Shown piece after piece: positions 25,032 through 56,128 of a stretch of DNA of 64,000 bases; position 1 is the stretch's first letter; every line of letters starts with the position of its first letter. The stretch covers positions 17,995 to 81,994 of the forward strand of contig MFHE01000002.1 of NCBI GenBank assembly GCA_001778495.1, given 5' to 3'. The DNA is from Candidatus Giovannonibacteria bacterium RIFCSPHIGHO2_01_FULL_45_24. GTDB lineage: Bacteria; Patescibacteriota; Minisyncoccia; UBA11713; 2-01-FULL-45-33. The notes beneath the pieces were generated by a model. It was not told where the DNA came from. It saw nothing but the letters and a program-made list of their open reading frames with translations, and made no database searches. Position numbers and translations under genes: made by a program.

Positions 25032-26315
25032 CTATGTCAACAAGCGCTTTCTGTGTAATTTTCTATAATGCGAAATCGCGAAGCGGTGGGCTTCGGAGTC
25101 CAGCATTAAAATAAAATTTTTGAGCGGTTCGGGGAGGCGCGGAAGGGGGACGGGAGACGTTTTACCATTTATAAAAATATGGTCACCAATATGTTTTTTG
25201 TTTTTGGTGAGAGCGATTATTTTACTTGGCGGTTTAACCGCCAAGGCCGCGCTAAGCTGTGCCCTGCCGCCGTCAACAATAATCACTTGCGGGTAAGGCC
25301 ATTCTTTATGTCTTAGTCGTCTGAAAATAATTTCGCGGAGCATCGCCGGGTCGTTTGAGGTTTTAATACTTCTGATTTTAAACAGCCGATAGCAATTTTT
25401 TTGAATTTTGCCGTCAGCGAAAACGGCCATAGAGCCGTAGGCGAATTGGCCATGAATATTGGCGATGTCGTAGGACTCTATTCTATTTATTGCGGGAATA
25501 TCCAAAATTGATTCCAAGGCCCTGCTGGCCTTGGCGAATTCGGTCGGAAGGTCCTGTTTAATTACTCCCCTGTGTTCAAAGATTTTTTCCAGCGCGCGGA
25601 TTTGGTCGCGGATTTTGCCGGCCTCTTCGTATTTTCTGGCGTCGGAGAGTTCGCGCATTTCTTTTTTGAGCGCGCGGGCAAGAGTTTTATTGTTGCCGGA
25701 GAGTATTTGCTTGATTGCGCGGATGTTTTTTTGGTATTTCCCCAGCGCAGAAAGATCCTGCTCTAAAAGCAGGGCTTTCTGCGCTACGCAACAATAGCCC
25801 AAACATCTCCCAATGCGCGCATTAAGGCACGGCCGCCTGTGAGGTTTTTTGCATGTGCAGTAGGGAAAAGCGCGGCGCAAGGTCTTGAGCGCCGAGCGTA
25901 AAACCCCGCCTTCAGTGAAGGGGCCGATGTAGTCGGCTTCGCGGTTTTTCTGATGCGTGATAAATATCTTTGAAAAATTTTCTTTAGAGAACCCGACATA
26001 AAAATACTGCTTATCGTCGCGCATCAGCACGTTGTATTTCGGCAGGTGTTTTTTAATGAGCCCCGCTTCGCGGATTAAGGCCTCGGTTTCGGAGTTTAAA
26101 ACCTCCCAATCCAATATTTTGGCTTTTTTTAGCAAGGCAATCAACTTGGCGGTTAAACCGCCAAGTGGCGGTTTAACCGCTTTTCCGAAATATGACCTGA
26201 TCCGCGCGCGCAGATTCGCCGCCTTTCCTATATATAGAATCTCCCCACTTTTGTTTCGGAAAAAATAAATCCCGGGCGCATTTGGCGCTTTTTTAAAGTC
26301 CTTTTTGGTGAGCAT
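25032..26315 (-). CDS. uvrC: excinuclease ABC subunit C (short form; I could not find a C-terminal (HhH)2 domain)
   Basis: GIY-YIG N-terminus (GIYFFRNKSGEILYIGKAANLRARIRSYF), a Cys cluster, a UVR domain and an RNase H-like domain. 427 aa. Confidence 0.9.
   Translation of the reverse strand: MLTKKDFKKAPNAPGIYFFRNKSGEILYIGKAANLRARIRSYFGKAVKPPLGGLTAKLIALLKKAKILDWEVLNSETEALIREAGLIKKHLPKYNVLMRDDKQYFYVGFSKENFSKIFITHQKNREADYIGPFTEGGVLRSALKTLRRAFPYCTCKKPHRRPCLNARIGRCLGYCCVAQKALLLEQDLSALGKYQKNIRAIKQILSGNNKTLARALKKEMRELSDARKYEEAGKIRDQIRALEKIFEHRGVIKQDLPTEFAKASRALESILDIPAINRIESYDIANIHGQFAYGSMAVFADGKIQKNCYRLFKIRSIKTSNDPAMLREIIFRRLRHKEWPYPQVIIVDGGRAQLSAALAVKPPSKIIALTKNKKHIGDHIFINGKTSPVPLPRLPEPLKNFILMLDSEAHRFAISHYRKLHRKRLLT
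25225..25245. repeat. REP-2-like palindrome, in frame in uvrC
   Basis: CTTGGCGGT-TTA-ACCGCCAAG. Confidence 0.8.
26145..26180. repeat. REP-2-like palindrome plus overlapping inverted half-copy, in frame in uvrC
   Basis: CTTGGCGGT-TAA-ACCGCCAAG followed by TGGCGGT-TTA-ACCGC. Confidence 0.8.
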
Positions 26316-35944: not shown

Positions 35945-37603
35945 ATGCCCTCTCAAATTGAAGAAATAAAAAGCCGCGTAAATGTCGTGGATTTGGTGGG
36001 CTCGTATGTCCGGCTTGCCAAAGCCGGCGCCAATTTCAGGGCGCTTTGCCCGTTCCACAGCGAGCGGACGCCGTCTTTTAACGTTTCTCCGGCCAGGCAG
36101 ATCTGGCATTGCTTCGGCTGCGGCAAGGGCGGGGACATTTTTGAATTTATCCAGCAGATTGAAGGGGTGGAGTTCGCGGACGCTCTGCGGACTTTGGCCG
36201 ACCGCGCCGGAGTGGAGCTCAAGCACGAAGACCCGCGATTTCGCACGGAGCGCGCGCGGCAGTTCGCGCTTCTGGAAGAAGCCGCGAAATTTTTTGAATC
36301 TAACTTAGCAATCGGATTGCTAAGTCCACTTAGCAATCCGATTGCTAAGTATCTTCATGCGCGTGGCCTGACTGATGACACCATCCGCGAATTCCGCTTG
36401 GGTTACGCGCAGGATGAATGGCGCTCTCTCTCCGCTCATTTAAAAAACAAGGATTTTTCCGCGGCGGAGATAGAAAAATCGGGGCTTGTTGTCAAAAATC
36501 AGCGCGATTTTTACGACCGCTTTCGCGGGCGGATAATGTTCCCGATTTTTGATTACAACGGCAGGGTAGCAGCTTTCGGCGGGAGAATTTTTCCGGAAAA
36601 AGATAACGAGTCAAAATATGTAAATTCGCCGGAAACTATTCTTTACCAAAAAAGCAAAACTTTGTATGCGCTCAACAAATCAAAAACGGAAATTATGCGC
36701 CAAAAAGAGTGCGTTGTGGTTGAGGGCTATATGGATGCGATTATGTCCTGGCAGGGCGGGGTAAAAAATGTCGCGGCATCTTCCGGAACGGCTTTCACTG
36801 AAGACCAGCTAAAGACAATCAAACGGCTTGCCGATAGGATGATTTTCTCTTTTGACGCCGACTCGGCCGGCGAGTCGGCGTCAAAACGCGGCATTGCTTT
36901 GGCCTTGGAGCGCGGATTTGAGGTGAGAGTGGCCGGAGGGTTGGGCGTTAAGGACCCGGCCGAAGCAGTCGCGAAAAATCCGGAGATTTGGCAAAAAGCC
37001 GTTTCCGCTTCGCGCCATATTGTTGAATTTTATCTGGATTCGGCCGTGAAAAAATTCCACCCTGCCTCCCCGGAAGCCAAACGTGAAATTCAAAAAACGG
37101 TTTTGCCGGTGGTTGCGTCCTTGGGCGAGCTTGAGCGCGCGCATTGGGCGAGGGAATTGAGCAATATTTTAAATATAAAAGAAGAAGCCGTCTGGGCGGC
37201 TTTGAAAAAAGCGAATACCGCCCTTTCACAGGAAGGAGAAAATGTTTTCGGAGATGAGCAAGGATCCGCGCGCAATAATAACAGAAAATCATTGCTTGAG
37301 GGCAGGATTTTAGCCATCGCCGCGGAATATCCGGCGCTTTCCCAAAAACTTGACCCGGCCTTTCAAAATCTGCTCGCCCAGAGCAACAAAACAGCCATCT
37401 TCGCGGAAATTTTACTCAACAATCTCGCTGACGCCGAAGTGGAATTCATAAAATGCCAGCGGGAGCTTAAAAAAGAGTATTTAAAAGAGCGTCTGGTTGC
37501 GCTTTCCGGAGAGATAAGCGGCGCGGAGCGCAAAGGCGCGGGAAATCTAAAAACGCTCCTGGGGGAATTTCATAAAATTTCCAAAGAATTAAATCAAATA
37601 TGA
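35945..37603 (+). CDS. dnaG: DNA primase
   Basis: Zn ribbon [30 protein letters not shown] and [14 protein letters not shown]...DADSAG. Confidence 0.95.
36304..36349. repeat. REPIN-like doublet, in frame in dnaG
   Basis: CTTAGCAAT-CGG-ATTGCTAAG, tcca, CTTAGCAAT-CCG-ATTGCTAAG. Confidence 0.95.
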
Positions 37604-42025: not shown

Positions 42026-42728
42026 AAACGGGAGAATAGTTTTATCGCCGTCCGCCCTCAATCTTTTTTTGGAGTGCGCGAAATGCTTTTGGCTGGAAAA
42101 AAATCGCGGGATCCACCGGCCCTCGGGCGCCTTTCCGTCTTTGCCGGGGGGAATGGACGCTGTGCTCAAAAAATATTTTGACAAGTTTCGCGCGCAAGGC
42201 ACACTCCCGCCGGAGATTGAGGGAAAAGTAGAAGGTAAGCTTTTAGACGACCCGAGATTTTTGCGCGAGTGGCGGCTCAATATGAAAGGAATCAGATGGC
42301 GCGACGAAAAATTGGACGCGGAGCTGATGGGCGCTTTAGATGACTGCTTGGTTTCTAATAATTCTTACATCCCCGTTGATTATAAAACTAGAGGCTGGGC
42401 GGCGAAAGATGATTCACATTCTTATTATGTGAACCAATTAAATTGCTACACATTTTTGCTGCAAAAAAACGGATACAAAACTAAAAATTTCGCTTACTTG
42501 CTTTTTTATTCGCCTGAAGAGGTTTTGGACTTGGACGCCGGACGTCCAAGCGGACGTCCGGCGTCCTTAGTCGCATTCAACGTTGAGCCGCGCAAGGTTG
42601 AAGTGGAACCCGAAGCCGCCTACAAAGTTTTCAAATCTGCCGTCCAGCTTTTGCGCGGCCCCAAGCCCGCTTCGCACAGCGACTGCAAGTTTTGCAGCTG
42701 GGGAAACAATTTCTTGACTTTTGAATAA
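42012..42728 (+). CDS. PD-(D/E)XK (Cas4/RecB-like) nuclease family protein
   Basis: N-terminal SPSALNLFLECAKCFW, core IPVDYKT, C-terminal CKFCSW cysteines. The track start at 41862 is rejected because it overlaps the MFS gene. Confidence 0.65.
   Translation: MVKDKNGRIVLSPSALNLFLECAKCFWLEKNRGIHRPSGAFPSLPGGMDAVLKKYFDKFRAQGTLPPEIEGKVEGKLLDDPRFLREWRLNMKGIRWRDEKLDAELMGALDDCLVSNNSYIPVDYKTRGWAAKDDSHSYYVNQLNCYTFLLQKNGYKTKNFAYLLFYSPEEVLDLDAGRPSGRPASLVAFNVEPRKVEVEPEAAYKVFKSAVQLLRGPKPASHSDCKFCSWGNNFLTFE
42530..42566. repeat. REP-2-like double hairpin, in frame in the nuclease gene
   Basis: GGACGCCGGACGTCC-aagc-GGACGTCCGGCGTCC (15-bp arms). The first half reads CTTGGACG-ccgga-CGTCCAAG. Confidence 0.9.
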
Positions 42729-43132: not shown

Positions 43133-43165
43133 CCAGCCCCGACGCATGTCGGGGCTGGGTTTTTT
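43133..43165 (+). terminator. Rho-independent terminator
   Basis: CCAGCCCCGAC-gcat-GTCGGGGCTGG followed by GTTTTTT. Confidence 0.85.
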
Positions 43166-44507: not shown

Positions 44508-45648
44508 ACTGACATTCGGCCGCCACAACGCGACTTTCGCGGTGCTTGGGGTGGCGCTTGTGGCGACGGCATCGTGGTCTTTCGTGAAAACTTACGGGGC
44601 GGGAGACGGGGGCGCGTTTCAGACGACTCCGGCTGTCATTTCCGAACCCGAAAAGCCAAAACACATAAAAACCCCTGAACCGGTGAAGGCGATTTATATG
44701 ACCAGCTGGGTTGCCGGCACGAAAGATTGGCGTAGAGAACTGGTTGAGTTCGTTAAAAAATCCGAAATCAATAGCATTGTCATTGACGTAAAAGATTACA
44801 CTGGCAGAGTTTCTTTTAACACAGGGAATCAGAAAGTAAAAGAATTCGGTTCGGAGGAAATGCGCGTGGGAGACATGAAAGATTTTATTGAAACGCTACA
44901 CGACGCCGGCATCTACGCCATTGCCCGCATTGCCGTGTTTCAGGACCCGTTTTACGCAAAAAAACATCCGGAGATCGCCGTGCAGAAAAAAAATGGAGCG
45001 GTATGGAAAGACAAAAAGGGGCTTTCATATCTAGACCCGGGCGCGCGCGAATTTTGGGACTATATAATAGAAGTCGCCAAAGCGTCGGAGGCAGCCGGGT
45101 TTGACGAGCTGAATTTTGACTATATCCGCTATCCATCGGACGGCAATATGTCCGACATAATGTTTCCGGTATCAGGCAAAAGAAATAAAGTTGAAGTCAT
45201 GTCAGAATTTTTTGCCTATTTAAGTAATGCGCTAAGCGATCTGCCAGTCCCAATCTCTGCGGATGTTTTCGGAATGGTTGCCACCAATCCCGACGATTTG
45301 AACATCGGGCAGGTTTTGGAAAGCATCGCCCCGCATTTTGATTATGTTTCTCCAATGGTTTATCCGTCGCACTACCCGCCGGGATTTCAAAATTATAAAA
45401 ATCCCGCGGCGCATCCTTACGAGGTAGTGCGTTTTTCAATGAACAAGGCGGTGGAACGACTTTCAGCGCCGACTTCAACTCCTTCCAAACTCCGCCCTTG
45501 GATTCAGGATTTTGATTTGGGAGCAAATTACGATGCCTCGAAAGTCCGTGCGCAGATTCAGGCGGTTTACGACTCCGGCCTTACGTCTTGGATGAGCTGG
45601 GATGCCGGGAATAAATACACAAGGGATGCTTACACCTCTGATCCTTGA
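44482..45648 (+). CDS. putative glycoside-hydrolase-like TIM-barrel protein (DUF4015-like)
   Basis: N-terminal anchor, then VKAIYMTSWVAG...INSIVIDVKDYTG...DELNFDYIRYP pattern. Confidence 0.55.
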   Translation: MKRQKYFHKLTFGRHNATFAVLGVALVATASWSFVKTYGAGDGGAFQTTPAVISEPEKPKHIKTPEPVKAIYMTSWVAGTKDWRRELVEFVKKSEINSIVIDVKDYTGRVSFNTGNQKVKEFGSEEMRVGDMKDFIETLHDAGIYAIARIAVFQDPFYAKKHPEIAVQKKNGAVWKDKKGLSYLDPGAREFWDYIIEVAKASEAAGFDELNFDYIRYPSDGNMSDIMFPVSGKRNKVEVMSEFFAYLSNALSDLPVPISADVFGMVATNPDDLNIGQVLESIAPHFDYVSPMVYPSHYPPGFQNYKNPAAHPYEVVRFSMNKAVERLSAPTSTPSKLRPWIQDFDLGANYDASKVRAQIQAVYDSGLTSWMSWDAGNKYTRDAYTSDP

Positions 45649-46372
45649 CCCAAATCCGATTTAGGGCAATCATATAATAATCATAGCATTGATATATGCG
45701 AAAAAACCCTTTTATCACTGGCAGTTTTTATCATGTTTACGCGCACACAATAAGTGATTTAGCGCTTTTTCGTAACGAGTGGGACTATAAAAGATTTTTA
45801 TGCACGTTTTTCGCTGCTAATGGAGATGGCGCTGTTCTTCGTTTGGATCGCCAGAATGACCTAAATCCGATTTGGGGCATACGGGATGGGACAGTAGATA
45901 TCGGAAAGCCGCTTGTAGATATAGTTTGTTTTTGTCTCATGAACACCCATTTCCACTTGCTTTTGGGAGAGCGTGGAGATGGAAATATTTCTAAATTTAT
46001 GCAAAAGCTTATGATCAGCTATGCCAAATATCTAAATCTAAAGTACGAACGCCGAGGGCACGTGTTTGAAAGCAGATTTCATTCCAAGCTTTTGGATGAT
46101 AATGAATATTTTTTGCGGGCTTCGTGCTATATTCACTTGAATCCAAAAGATGCACGCGGATGGAAAAATATTGAGTATAAATATCCTTGGTCAAGCTACC
46201 AAGACTACCTCGGCGATTCTCGCTGGGGCAGACTTTTGAAAGACGAGACTATACTTTCACAATTTAAAACCAAACTGGCGTATAGGGAATTTGTGAGAGA
46301 AGCGCGCCCGGAATTATCCGATTATGCAGAGCATGTTGTTTTTCTAAACTGACCCAAATCGGATTTGGGGCA
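45646..46372 (+). mobile_element. RAYT-1 unit: Y1/HUH transposase gene bracketed by 23-nt REP-1 hairpin copies
   Basis: TGACCCAAATC(C/G)GATTT(A/G)GGGCA at 45646-45668 and 46350-46372. A third copy lies at 45857-45879 inside the ORF. Confidence 0.75.
45696..46352 (+). CDS. REP-associated tyrosine transposase-like protein (IS200/Y1_Tnp family)
   Basis: FYHVY..., HUH motif in CLMNTHFHLLL, C-terminal Tyr motif ASCYIHLNP. Confidence 0.8.
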   Translation: MRKNPFITGSFYHVYAHTISDLALFRNEWDYKRFLCTFFAANGDGAVLRLDRQNDLNPIWGIRDGTVDIGKPLVDIVCFCLMNTHFHLLLGERGDGNISKFMQKLMISYAKYLNLKYERRGHVFESRFHSKLLDDNEYFLRASCYIHLNPKDARGWKNIEYKYPWSSYQDYLGDSRWGRLLKDETILSQFKTKLAYREFVREARPELSDYAEHVVFLN

Positions 46373-46432
46373 GGTGTGGATATCTTTTGTTTGCGCTAGA
46401 TGCCGCAATGAGTTTAAAATCAAAGTGATACT

Positions 46433-51937: not shown

Positions 51938-51956
51938 ATTATTAATCCTTAGGAAG

Positions 51957-51977
51957 TTAGGAAGTCCGACTTCCTAA
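51957..51977. repeat. intergenic REP-like hairpin
   Basis: TTAGGAAGT-CCG-ACTTCCTAA, preceded by a partial duplication of the left arm. Confidence 0.8.
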
Positions 51978-52020
51978 TGATTTTGCTTGCTTGATAGATT
52001 GAATTTGATAGAATTAAAAT

Positions 52021-53265
52021 ATGGTTAAAAATTTCAGAGTTGGCGCGGTTTTGGCGACTTTGGTTTTCGGGGCGGCTTTTTATTTTCTTCCGACTTTTCA
52101 CTCTCCAGAAGTCCAAGCGGGCTCCGAGCATAATCTTTCCGGGTGGGCGTGGTCGGAAAATATCGGCTGGATAAGTTTTAACTCAACCAATCAGGGTGGT
52201 GGGGCGAACTACGGCGTGACGGTTGACAGTGGCGGCAATCTTTCCGGCTACGCCTGGTCGGAAAACATCGGCTGGATTGATTTTAATGAGAATACCGGAT
52301 GCCCATCTTCTCCCTGCCGGCCGAAACTGAACCGTTCCAGCGGGCAAGTTTCCGGATGGGTTAAGGCCTTGGCGGCGGGCGGCAGCGGTTGGGACGGCTG
52401 GATTCGCCTTCGTGGATCTAATTACGGAGTTGGTGTTAACGGCTGTGACTGGGATGGGTATGCTTGGGGGTCTGATGTTGTGGGATGGATTCATTTTAAG
52501 GGATCAAATTACGGCGTTTCGGGAACTGGATCCGGCTGCGGCGTTCAGCCCGATTTGCTCGTTTCAAGCGGCCCGCTGCTTAATTTCGGCGTTTTGGTCG
52601 GAGGGACGACGGTCAATTTCAAGGGCACCGTGCGCAATCAGGGCGACGCAGAAGCCGTAGGCGCTTTTTCTAATCGCTTTCAGGTTGACATTGATAATAA
52701 CGGCTCGGTTGATTTAACGCTTACTCCAAATCCAACATTGAGCGGCCTCGCCGCCGGAAGATTTTCTGAAGTGGTTTCCGGAAACTGGAGCAATATCCCC
52801 GTCGGCACGCACCGCGTTGTTCTTTGCGCCGACCAGCCCGGCCCGACTATTGCCGAATCCAACGAAAATAACAACTGCTCGGAAAGCTTATTCACCGTCT
52901 CCGTGCCGGAGTTTTACCTATTAAGCTCAAACGAGCTTGATATTGATGTCACCGGCGTGGGAGATTCTTCAAGCGGCACTACCAAAATAACCGTGATTCC
53001 GGTCGGAGCTTTTACCGATGACGTCGCATTGTCTGTACAGTCCGTTTCGCCGTCTTTGCCTGCTGGGACAATTTATAATTTCGTGCCGCAAACCCTGAAG
53101 AAAAATCAGTATTCTTCCGGTTCAAATTTTAAAGTGACGGTTCCCGGAGACACCGCGGAGGACGAGTATATTATTACCATTGTAGGCCAAAGCCCTGGAC
53201 TCAACCGGACAATCAATGTTACACTTCATGTTAATTTAAAGATTCCGGAATTTAAAGAAATTTAA
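52021..53265 (+). CDS. secreted surface protein, paralogue of 47564-49915 (module 2, gene c)
   Basis: Same N-terminal GWAWSENIGWISFN repeat domain and same C-terminal domain, ending PEFKEI versus PDFREI. Confidence 0.75.
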   Translation: MVKNFRVGAVLATLVFGAAFYFLPTFHSPEVQAGSEHNLSGWAWSENIGWISFNSTNQGGGANYGVTVDSGGNLSGYAWSENIGWIDFNENTGCPSSPCRPKLNRSSGQVSGWVKALAAGGSGWDGWIRLRGSNYGVGVNGCDWDGYAWGSDVVGWIHFKGSNYGVSGTGSGCGVQPDLLVSSGPLLNFGVLVGGTTVNFKGTVRNQGDAEAVGAFSNRFQVDIDNNGSVDLTLTPNPTLSGLAAGRFSEVVSGNWSNIPVGTHRVVLCADQPGPTIAESNENNNCSESLFTVSVPEFYLLSSNELDIDVTGVGDSSSGTTKITVIPVGAFTDDVALSVQSVSPSLPAGTIYNFVPQTLKKNQYSSGSNFKVTVPGDTAEDEYIITIVGQSPGLNRTINVTLHVNLKIPEFKEI

Positions 53266-54447: not shown

Positions 54448-55416
54448 ATGCTTTATGATGTTATAATTATCGGCGGGGGCCCTGCCGGAGCGGCGGCGGC
54501 AGTGTATGCTGCCAGAAAAAAACTAAAAACGCTTTTAATTACCGATTCTTTCGGCGGGCAATCGCTTGTTTCCAGCGATATCCAAAACTGGATAGGCGAG
54601 CCGCATATTTCCGGATTTGACCTTGCGCAAAAACTTGAAGCGCACGTGCGCTCCTTTCCGGACGCTGTTGAGATAAAGACATCGGAGAGGGCGACGGCAA
54701 TTCGCAGCATCAAGTGCAGTGAAGAGAGGATTTGTGATTTTGAGGTCAAAACCGACCAAAATAATGTTTATGAAGCTAAAACGCTGATTTTAACAATCGG
54801 CGCAAGAAGAAAAAAACTCGGCGTGCCAGGAGAAGAGAAATTTGAAGGCAAGGGCGTGGCTTATTGCTCAACCTGCGACGCGCCGCTTTTTTCCGGGAAG
54901 CGAGTCGCGGTTGTGGGCGGCGGCAATGCCGGATTGGAAGCAGTAGTTGACCTTTTCCCTTATGCTTCGGAAATTTATTTAATCCATCGCGGAGACGCTC
55001 TAAAAGGGGACCCGGCGGAGCAAGAAAAAATCAAGAAAAATCCTAAACTTAAAGAGATAATCTTGAATGCGGAGACATTGGAAATTTTGGGGGACAGGTT
55101 TGTTGCCGGATTGAAATATAAAAATTCAAAGACCGGAGAAGAAAAAGCGTTGAGCGTTGAGGGGGTTTTTGTGGAAATTGGCTCCCAGCCCAATTCTGAA
55201 ATAGTTAAAGATTTGGTTCTTTTAGACCAATGGGGGCAGATAAAAATTGACCCGCGGCACGGTTCAACCTCGCACCCGGGAATTTTCGCGGCCGGAGACG
55301 TCACCGACGACCCGTACAAACAAAACAATATTTCGGTAGGCGACGCCGTAAAAGCGGCTTTGGCGGCATATAATTATTTACTCAAGCGCGAAAAACAACC
55401 CCCCGCGGCCGGTTAG
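54448..55416 (+). CDS. trxB: thioredoxin-disulfide reductase
   Basis: DVIIIGGGPAGAAAA, redox CSTC, second GGGNAGLE fold, and AAGDVTD. Confidence 0.88.
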   Translation: MLYDVIIIGGGPAGAAAAVYAARKKLKTLLITDSFGGQSLVSSDIQNWIGEPHISGFDLAQKLEAHVRSFPDAVEIKTSERATAIRSIKCSEERICDFEVKTDQNNVYEAKTLILTIGARRKKLGVPGEEKFEGKGVAYCSTCDAPLFSGKRVAVVGGGNAGLEAVVDLFPYASEIYLIHRGDALKGDPAEQEKIKKNPKLKEIILNAETLEILGDRFVAGLKYKNSKTGEEKALSVEGVFVEIGSQPNSEIVKDLVLLDQWGQIKIDPRHGSTSHPGIFAAGDVTDDPYKQNNISVGDAVKAALAAYNYLLKREKQPPAAG

Positions 55417-55420
55417 TTCC

Positions 55421-56128
55421 CACTTGGCTGTCCGACAGCCAAGTGTTATATTTTATTTATGAGAAAAACTCGTTTTGGTAACGGAGAATTTTATCATATT
55501 TATAATCGCGGTACCGATAAGCGTCGGGTATTTTTAGACCAAGAAGATTTTAAGCGTTTTTTGCAGAGCATGAACGAATTTAACAGCCAAATACCTATCG
55601 GCAGTTTATTTGAGAACTCTTTTAGGGGCGAAACTAAACTTGGCAGTCGGACTGTTAAGTTGGTTGATATCGTTTGCTATTGTCTTAATCCTAACCACTA
55701 TCATTTAATGCTTCGTCAGCGCATTGAAAATGGAGTTAGTGAGTTTATGAAACGATTGAGTGGTGGTTATACTCAATATTTCAATATTAAATATAAAAGA
55801 AGCGGCGTGCTTTTTCAAGGTAAATTTAAGGCGACGCACATAGATTCTAATGAATATCTTTTACATGCCAGCGCATATGTTAATTTGAATAACCGCGTTC
55901 ATCATATTAATGACAGATCATCACGATCAAGTTGGGGAGAATGTCTCGATGACAATAGCGGTATGTGCGCTAAAGATATTATATTGAAGCAATTTAAGAA
56001 GCCCGTCGAGTATAAAGAATTTGCTGAAAGTTCGCTAAGAGATATTTTAGAGCGGAAACAACTGCATAAAGAACTGGAAAAAATATTACTAGAAAATTAG
56101 CCACTTAGCTGTCGGACAGCTAAGTGGC
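55421..56128 (+). mobile_element. RAYT-2 unit: Y1/HUH transposase gene bracketed by REP-2 hairpins
   Basis: CACTTGGCTGT-CCG-ACAGCCAAGTG (55421-55445) and CCACTTAGCTGT-CGG-ACAGCTAAGTGG (56101-56127). Internal copy at 55638-55660. Confidence 0.8.
55459..56100 (+). CDS. REP-associated tyrosine transposase-like protein (IS200/Y1_Tnp family)
   Basis: FYHIYNRG..., HUH motif in CLNPNHYHLML, Tyr motif ASAYVNLN. TGtTATATT ends 7 nt before the ATG. Confidence 0.8.
   Translation: MRKTRFGNGEFYHIYNRGTDKRRVFLDQEDFKRFLQSMNEFNSQIPIGSLFENSFRGETKLGSRTVKLVDIVCYCLNPNHYHLMLRQRIENGVSEFMKRLSGGYTQYFNIKYKRSGVLFQGKFKATHIDSNEYLLHASAYVNLNNRVHHINDRSSRSSWGECLDDNSGMCAKDIILKQFKKPVEYKEFAESSLRDILERKQLHKELEKILLEN

Follow-up and report, generated by a model that had tools for sequence, protein, structure and literature searches.

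The question raised by this locus is why a gene for a predicted DNA nuclease should carry copies of one short palindrome ahead of it, inside its reading frame and at its stop codon. The gene, referred to here as RAYT-2, occupies positions 55459–56100 on the forward strand of a 64-kb stretch (the window) of the genome of Candidatus Giovannonibacteria bacterium RIFCSPHIGHO2_01_FULL_45_24, an ultra-small bacterium of the Patescibacteria (candidate phyla radiation; CPR). An earlier note on this DNA had described the gene as RAYT-like, with a cognate hairpin on both flanks and another inside the open reading frame (ORF), and had taken the internal copy to be a conserved feature rather than an accident. 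The comparison of homologous loci points to a Patescibacteria family of more than 3000 database relatives, with several paralogues per genome, in which a cognate palindrome is found in the predicted promoter, up to twice in the frame of the protein and at the stop codon, and in which all of these copies switch type together.

The RAYT-2 gene and its palindromes

The 213-residue product of RAYT-2 matches the Pfam Y1_Tnp profile (PF01797; E = 1.2e-7) with a score of 32.3 bits, and that of RAYT-1, a paralogue in the window, scores 25.6 bits; both are above the cutoff of 23. Against the NCBIfam RAYT equivalog (NF047646) the scores are 24.1 bits for RAYT-2 and 38.2 bits for RAYT-1, both below the cutoff of 80. 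The translation contains the motifs FYHIYNRG, NPNHYHLML and AYVNLN, as previously described for this ORF, and the two histidines of the HUH motif (H80 and H82) and the catalytic tyrosine (Y140) are invariant across an alignment of 116 sequences. A sequence search against solved structures was weak (the best match, to ISDra2 TnpA, had an E value of about 0.5) and a fold search was therefore needed. In the AlphaFold model of RAYT-2 [mean predicted local distance difference test (pLDDT) score of 86.8], H80 and H82 lie on the strand formed by residues 80–87 and Y140 lies on the helix formed by residues 131–142. The top solved structure identified with Foldseek was PDB entry 4ER8 (E = 5.5e-6, target-normalised TM-score of 0.62), which is the E. 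coli RAYT bound to a repetitive extragenic palindromic (REP) hairpin, and the structures of ISDra2 and IS608 TnpA ranked next. The profile match and the predicted fold identify RAYT-2 as a putative Y1 HUH enzyme of the IS200/RAYT type. The RAYT-like assignment therefore stands at the level of this wider type (32.3 versus 23 bits; 4ER8) and does not extend to the NCBIfam equivalog (24 versus 80 bits). Searches against defence and phage protein families gave no matches.

Two perfect palindromes bracket the gene. The upstream copy (UP), CACTTGGCTGTC-C-GACAGCCAAGTG, spans positions 55421–55445 with a 12-bp stem and begins 5 nt past the stop codon of the upstream neighbour trxB (54448–55416, the last base of the stop being 55416). 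The downstream copy (DN), GCCACTTAGCTGTC-G-GACAGCTAAGTGGC, spans positions 56100–56128 with a 14-bp stem and begins on the final G of the TAG stop codon of RAYT-2. The resulting unit (55421–56128) is 708 bp in length and consists of a single gene between perfect palindromes. The two flanking copies differ by a compensated G..C to A..T change, giving stem types of GGCTGT/ACAGCC for UP and AGCTGT/ACAGCT for DN, and in the orientation of the loop (CCG versus CGG). Both palindromes and the compensated change were correctly noted before, as was the in-frame internal copy. This copy, ACTTGGCAGT-CGG-ACTGTTAAGT (55638–55660, forward strand), is imperfect, with eight Watson–Crick and two G:T pairs, and encodes KLGSRTVKL. 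We refer to its position as slot S1. In the model S1 corresponds to a loop at residues ~58–68 and is followed by a strand (residues 69–76) that precedes the HUH strand (residues 80–87), so that the internal copy does not lie directly before the HUH strand, as had been stated.

A second in-frame slot (S2), which was absent from the earlier note, was overlooked because it has decayed in RAYT-2. From the alignment it is placed at approximately 55903–55925 on the forward strand, where the sequence reads t att aat gac aga tca tca cga t (I-N-D-R-S-S-R); in the model and the alignment it corresponds to a loop at residues ~148–157, just past the helix that carries the catalytic tyrosine and before an SSW motif. 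Both the S1 and S2 loops have lower pLDDT values in the model. The S1 copy in the window agrees with the flanking copies at 15 of 19 positions, a level that is also reached by about 5% of non-cognate comparisons, and its weight is therefore derived from the exact slot, the codon phase and the homologues rather than from the match alone. The S2 sequence agrees at 8 of 19 positions, which is the null level. By these comparisons S1 of the window gene is decaying, a rare intermediate state, and S2 is dead.

A degenerate form of the palindrome pattern has three matches in the window, compared with 0.00 expected. The predicted folding energies as single-stranded DNA are −12.1 kcal/mol for UP (z = −8.4), −5.6 kcal/mol for S1 (z = −3.8) and −15.1 kcal/mol for DN (z = −8.3). 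A chance origin of the palindromes was rejected on the basis of the pattern counts, the hairpins of the paralogue, the permutation test and the distribution of slot matches given below. An internal promoter at S1 was also considered and is not proposed here, as the −10-like hexamer found there has poor geometry with a spacing of 19 nt.

Four palindrome slots in homologous genes

To place these copies in a wider context, 79 loci containing relatives at 47–72% identity were fetched from one-per-species genomes and each was searched for hairpins. The slots were counted in the 67 genes with a recognised HUH motif (65 homologous loci and the two window genes). The UP slot, within 90 nt upstream of the ATG, is occupied in 59 of these genes, and the DN slot, at or just past the stop codon, in 58. 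Slot S1, centred 9.5–20 codons before a YCLN motif, is occupied in 44/67, and slot S2, the centre of which falls sharply at 79.5 codons after the same motif, in 43/67; both internal slots are occupied in 27/67.

The internal copies are read in a common codon phase, x-CTT-GGN...NCC-AAG-x, in 37 of 41 cases for S1 and 33 of 34 for S2. The encoded peptides include KLGNRVAKL, LLSSRTAKL and KLGRPTSKL, and the in-frame copies thereby explain a variable segment in the protein alignment. Intact and decayed slots have the same length, and no insertion polymorphism was seen in the slots of the nuclease genes. The proposal that a single codon phase applies to all four slots was rejected: it holds for S1, S2 and UP and fails for DN (24/57, P = 0.1). 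The phase of UP can be attributed to the fixed geometry of the promoter described below, and the idea that DN is a translated relic was dropped because its phase is not shared. The conserved slot in homologues, together with the co-variation of the internal copies with the flanks, makes the case for a conserved feature stronger than it was when first proposed.

Copies within a locus evolve in concert

When the inner 8-nt arms of S1 or S2 are compared with the flanking copies of the same locus, the mean identity is 0.75–0.85, and for UP compared with DN it is 0.89. Permutation of the loci gave a null identity of 0.46–0.48 (s.d. 0.03), with a maximum of 0.60 in 2000 runs. The arms differ widely between loci, with 38 distinct arms among 43 loci. 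The state of the internal slots is bimodal: S1 agrees with the flanks at 19 of 19 positions in 23 loci and at 18 of 19 in seven, S2 agrees at 19 of 19 in 22 loci, and the remainder are null-like. Among 116 distinct 23-mers the outer arms (ACTTRG/CYAAGT) are nearly constant. All four Watson–Crick pair types occur at each of stem pairs 5, 7, 8, 9 and 10, and these positions are paired in 102–114 of the 23-mers, compared with 35–71 in shuffles. These comparisons of sequence show that the copies within a locus evolve in concert and that their base pairs covary.

The replacement of one type by another can be followed in a positional orthologue of RAYT-2 (locus L167; 78% amino-acid identity) that also lies directly after trxB. 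Its UP, S1 (a perfect copy) and DN palindromes are all of the type GGCAAC/GTTGCC, unlike the GGCTGT/ACAGCC and AGCTGT/ACAGCT types of the window. The dead S2 sequences of the two loci, in contrast, are homologous, with 18 of 21 positions identical and only ordinary point changes between them. The contrast between L167 and the window therefore shows that the live slots switch type together.

Some loci depart from a single type per locus. L029, L013 and L014 combine two or three different palindrome types in their four slots, every one of them perfect. In L029 UP is identical to S2 and S1 is identical to DN, and in L013 the odd DN hairpin may serve the gene that follows as its promoter palindrome. 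A further locus, L007 (72% amino-acid identity, not beside trxB), has a hairpin type identical to that of DN in the window. As the closer, syntenic L167 (78%) has a different type, the hairpin type does not simply track protein similarity. Six sample-independent copies of the window locus had zero differences and were hence uninformative on microevolution.

The upstream palindrome as a predicted promoter core

A consensus scan identified a promoter-like site, TTGGCT-17-TATATT with a TG (9/12 matches), at positions 55424–55452 on the forward strand. The −35 element (TTGGCT) is contributed by the left arm of the UP palindrome, the −10 element (TATATT) lies at 55447–55452 and its TG is contributed by the right arm, so that the palindrome covers the −35 element through position −12. 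The −10 element ends 6 nt before the ATG (55459).

The same geometry is found across the family. A −10-like hexamer with at least four of six matches follows the UP palindrome in 49 of 51 loci; its modal start is 14 nt past the centre of the palindrome and its modal end is 6 nt before the ATG. The left arm provides a −35 element of the form TTGGNN at a spacing of 17 nt and the right arm (..AAGTG) provides the TG of an extended −10 element. The TG contributed by the right arm had been proposed for the window locus, and the proposal can now be extended to the family. We consider that the UP palindrome is the predicted promoter core throughout the family. This geometry leaves no room for a Shine–Dalgarno sequence and the mRNA is therefore most likely to be leaderless.

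Elsewhere in the window, an intergenic hairpin, TTAGGAAGTC-C-GACTTCCTAA, is found at 51945–51977 and 52000–52023, with its left arm partly duplicated. In front of the gene that follows it (ATG at 52021) the hexamer TAGAAT ends 6 nt before the ATG, and leaderless-type promoters may therefore be general in this genome.

A private hairpin at a stationary locus

The hairpin of each locus was searched for within 10 kb on either side, outside the gene, giving a total of 940 kb. Extra cognate copies number 15 in 940 kb, compared with 2.4 for non-cognate arms, and any match is found in nine of 63 loci. For the hairpin types of both RAYT-1 and RAYT-2, no copies were found outside their own gene within the 64 kb of the window. 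A dispersed REP family was therefore rejected for the window and for the homologous flanks, and the label `REP' given to these hairpins by the earlier note is not supported, as they are not repeated through the stretches searched. The conserved 5′ GTAG/GTGG at the foot of the hairpin and the imperfect stem were looked for and none were seen; the stems are perfect and their constant part, ACTTRG/CYAAGT, lies inside the stem.

Orthologues are found directly after trxB at 99% and 78% identity, and in distant genomes trxB, gap, rpiB or rpe is found next to members of the family. Multiple near-identical whole units were not seen in the window, which has a single copy of each unit. Gene order and copy number thus point to a unit that is stationary and vertically inherited.

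The paralogue RAYT-1

The RAYT-1 unit (45646–46373, forward strand) contains a gene at 45696–46352 with 34% identity to RAYT-2 and has a hairpin of its own type, CCYAAATCSGATTTRGG, that is present upstream (45649–45665), internally (45860–45876, encoding DLNPIWG) and downstream (46353–46369). A survey of 80 metagenome loci included about 60 in the RAYT-1 clade (49–65% identity), the rest being more distant. The flanks of the clade carry one conserved hairpin type, TGACCYAAAC..GTTTRGGTCA. In five loci of the clade the internal copy is still intact, about 20 codons ahead of the HUH motif, and elsewhere a peptide footprint, DLNLVWDI, is widespread; the DN hairpin often extends into the last codons of the gene (..FDPNQVWDI). 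The more distant relatives (33–38% identity) have no internal copy and have long, different flanking palindromes, and no members of the RAYT-1 clade were found among the RAYT-2 homologue loci. The claim that both paralogues carry their own internal cognate hairpin is borne out, with the qualification that in the RAYT-1 clade the internal copy is mostly a relic.

What the palindromes might do

The account that we favour, with a probability of roughly 0.45, is that the locus is a stationary unit of about 708 bp, similar to a REPtron, in which the palindromes serve as targets of the enzyme and probably also regulate it. The enzyme would recognise its palindrome as an extruded or single-stranded hairpin, in the manner of E. 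coli TnpA-REP and IS200/IS608 TnpA, and all copies of the palindrome would be its substrates. By binding or nicking the promoter copy the enzyme would exert negative autoregulation, and the internal and DN copies would be auxiliary or by-product sites, those in the frame being tolerated in two surface loops. The copies could be kept identical by slot-to-slot copying, either by enzyme-mediated strand exchange or by template switching anchored on the ACTTGG/CCAAGT arms, and a new palindrome variant would then replace the whole set. The autoregulation or self-recognition proposed at the outset is plausible on this account. There are precedents for its components: REP DNA is bound by E. coli TnpA-REP only in single-stranded form, and the two co-evolve (PMC3333891, PMC8266576), and the ends of IS200-type elements are perfect palindromes (PMC8266576).

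A number of points weigh against a role for the enzyme at these sites. Its binding and cutting of the palindrome are what we infer from the arrangement, and the promoter and the leaderless start are predictions from consensus matches. The internal slots are dispensable, as S1 and S2 are each absent in about a third of the loci and are degraded in RAYT-2, and any function of the internal copies would therefore be weak or conditional. Quasipalindrome correction by template switching can produce perfect palindromes and compensated changes even when no selection acts. The imperfect stem and the 5′ GTAG that E. coli TnpA-REP requires are both absent here. Finally, the orientation of the loop varies among the slots, whereas IS200-type cleavage would be expected to impose a fixed strand polarity.

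The main rival is a neutral one, in which the internal copies are by-products without function, derived from old palindrome insertions in tolerant loops, and only the flanking copies at the promoter and the gene end matter. The internal copies would occasionally be overwritten from the flanks by template switching or short-tract conversion, and their palindromy would be restored by quasipalindrome correction. We regard this as somewhat unlikely, although much of the data can be accommodated by it. Occupancy of the internal slots is only about 65% and is bimodal, with copies either perfect or null-like, as overwriting followed by decay predicts. In RAYT-2 the catalytic residues are intact although S1 is decaying and S2 is dead, and the slots lie in loops of lower pLDDT and keep their length in either state. 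Mismatches in the stems, counted on the coding strand of 156 hairpins, comprise 15 G:T and 22 A:C, and with no excess of G:T there is no visible strand-specific selection. However, the codon position of the two slots is exactly retained in lineages with as little as about 47% identity, with 45 perfect copies in 57 loci, and to achieve this the neutral account needs a high rate of conversion for 23-bp repeats. The alternation of two perfect types in L029 is not predicted by simple nearest-neighbour conversion, and the diverged RAYT-1 clade also retains an internal copy or its peptide footprint.

A more far-reaching possibility, to which we assign only a slim chance, is that the gene edits itself, the palindromes being working recombination or nicking sites of the HUH enzyme. 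The sites would then divide the gene into an N-terminal strand with helices, a catalytic core with the HUH motif and the tyrosine, and a C-terminal helical domain. As S1 and S2 share one codon phase, the reading frame would be preserved if the segment between them were exchanged or excised. Were this the case, the enzyme would swap or copy hairpins among the slots, giving concerted switching of type, and could excise or replace its own catalytic core; the gene would be self-limiting, with a specificity label written both in its promoter and in its protein.

It is improbable that the unit is an active IS200-like insertion sequence (IS), with the flanking hairpins as transposon ends and the ~708 bp moving as a whole. 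The size and the anatomy, one tnpA-like gene between perfect palindromes, are like those of IS200 (PMC8266576), and the family is very large with several members per genome. On the other hand, there is no identical second copy in the window, where the paralogues are only 34% identical and each has its own hairpin, the arms are distinct in 38 of 43 loci, and the neighbouring genes are conserved as described above. An element acting at the level of RNA, with mRNA hairpins as translation attenuators, stabilisers or a terminator, is very unlikely, for although the internal and DN copies would be transcribed, pairing in S1 of the window is kept through two G:U-compatible positions and a terminator scan flags both flanking hairpins, the UP copy lies in the promoter, ahead of the predicted start and so outside the mRNA, G:T mismatches are not in excess over A:C, the DN hairpin has no T-run on the coding strand (the flagged match is on the minus strand) and an Rfam scan matched no family to the hairpins, finding only three tRNAs elsewhere in the window.

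Comparison with known systems

RAYT/REP and IS200 systems are the textbook cases of a single-strand DNA enzyme that co-evolves with a hairpin, and in both the gene itself is free of the hairpins. In IS200 the left end includes regulatory hairpins. The closest counterpart of the present locus is the REPtron, a RAYT/TnpA-REP gene with flanking REPs or bacterial interspersed mosaic elements (BIMEs; Nunvar, 2010, PMC2817692; Ton-Hoang, 2012, PMC3333891; Corneloup, 2021, PMC8266576). The two have in common a Y1 HUH enzyme (4ER8 being the best fold match), cognate palindromes that bracket the gene, a stationary and vertically inherited locus, co-variation of enzyme and hairpin, and several paralogues that each have a separate hairpin type, a situation reported from Pseudomonas and Stenotrophomonas. 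They differ in that the present hairpin is private and is not a high-copy genomic repeat, that it is perfect, without GTAG or a stem mismatch, and that the protein misses the NCBIfam RAYT cutoff. A further difference is that the palindrome here forms the predicted promoter core and has up to two further in-frame copies in the ORF.

The likeness to IS200, of the IS200/IS605 subgroup whose ends are perfect palindromes, consists of a unit of ~700 bp with one Y1 transposase gene between perfect hairpins and a hairpin near the start of the gene. In contrast to IS200, the present units lack multiple identical copies, retain their gene neighbourhoods, have a hairpin unique to each gene and carry internal copies in frame. 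Intragenic REPs (Di Nocera, 2013, PMC3733652) and Rickettsia palindromic elements (RPEs) are likewise short palindromic units in frame in protein-coding genes, often in replication or repair genes and at recurrent sites, as for dnaG and uvrC in the window. Here, however, the host is the nuclease's own gene, the units are 23–29 bp in length compared with about 100–150 bp for RPEs, and they match their own flanks.

A nicking enzyme with its site in its own gene is known from replication systems: the origin of phiX174 lies inside gene A and that of pT181 lies inside repC, and in the pT181 family the site and the specificity of the protein co-vary among relatives. These share with the present family a tyrosine nicking enzyme and a cognate site within its own coding sequence. 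They are single-site origins of autonomous replicons, whereas up to four sites are found here in a chromosomal gene with no replicon.

In the papers that we could search on RAYTs, REPtrons, REPINs and the Y1 superfamily of HUH enzymes we found no hairpins inside a transposase ORF, no promoter built from a hairpin and no such clade of Patescibacteria. Systems in which a Y1 HUH gene is flanked by cognate palindromes are known; the in-frame copies, the embedding in the promoter and the switching of the whole set have no counterpart in those papers. In this family dozens of enzyme variants come naturally matched with their hairpins, a data set from which rules of recognition could be derived, and the family provides a clear example of concerted evolution between coding and non-coding copies within 700 bp. 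The hypothesis of autoregulation is concrete and can be tested in organisms that are difficult to study. There may also be a link with the unexplained way in which short palindromes tend to occupy the reading frames of genes for replication and repair, dnaG and uvrC among them.

Related hairpins elsewhere in the window

In dnaG, the reading frame at 36303–36350 takes in two hairpins in tandem, ACTTAGCAATC[G/C]GATTGCTAAGT, which encode 16 residues of the linker that joins the zinc ribbon to the primase core. In a uvrC-like gene (minus-strand ORF, 25032–26315) in-frame hairpins, ACTTGGCGGTT[A/T]AACCGCCAAG(T), are found at 26144–26180 and 25224–25246, with an overlapping 15-bp inverted repeat; the encoded peptides are AVKPPLGGLTAK and AVKPPSK. 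The dnaG and uvrC hairpins have the same ACTTRG-type outer arms as the RAYT-2 palindromes and other inner stems. By protein comparison, the slot in DnaG orthologues is empty in P0122–P0125 and P0129 and is differently filled in others, some of the inserts having the look of palindrome-encoded peptides; in other Giovannonibacteria it is filled by AVKPPSGGLTA, which is nearly identical to a peptide of the uvrC-like gene and at the protein level could be encoded by the uvrC palindrome. Intragenic REPs are concentrated in replication and repair genes at recurrent sites (PMC3733652). The placement of the dnaG and uvrC hairpins matches this pattern and, together with their presence and absence among orthologues, suggests a low level of mobility of such units.

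Three other hairpins were seen in the window. A composite palindrome, ACTTGGACGCCGGACGTCCAAGCGGACGTCCGGCGTCCTTAGT, at 42529–42570 also has an ACTTGG outer arm. A perfect 16-bp stem, TTTTGACGCCGACTCG-GCCGG-CGAGTCGGCGTCAAAA, at 36850–36886 lies inside dnaG, encodes a 12-residue peptide and is of a type other than the ACTTRG family. The hairpin CCAGCCCCGAC-GCAT-GTCGGGGCTGG at 43133–43158 is followed by TTTTTT and appears to be an ordinary intrinsic-terminator-like site, unrelated to the palindrome family.

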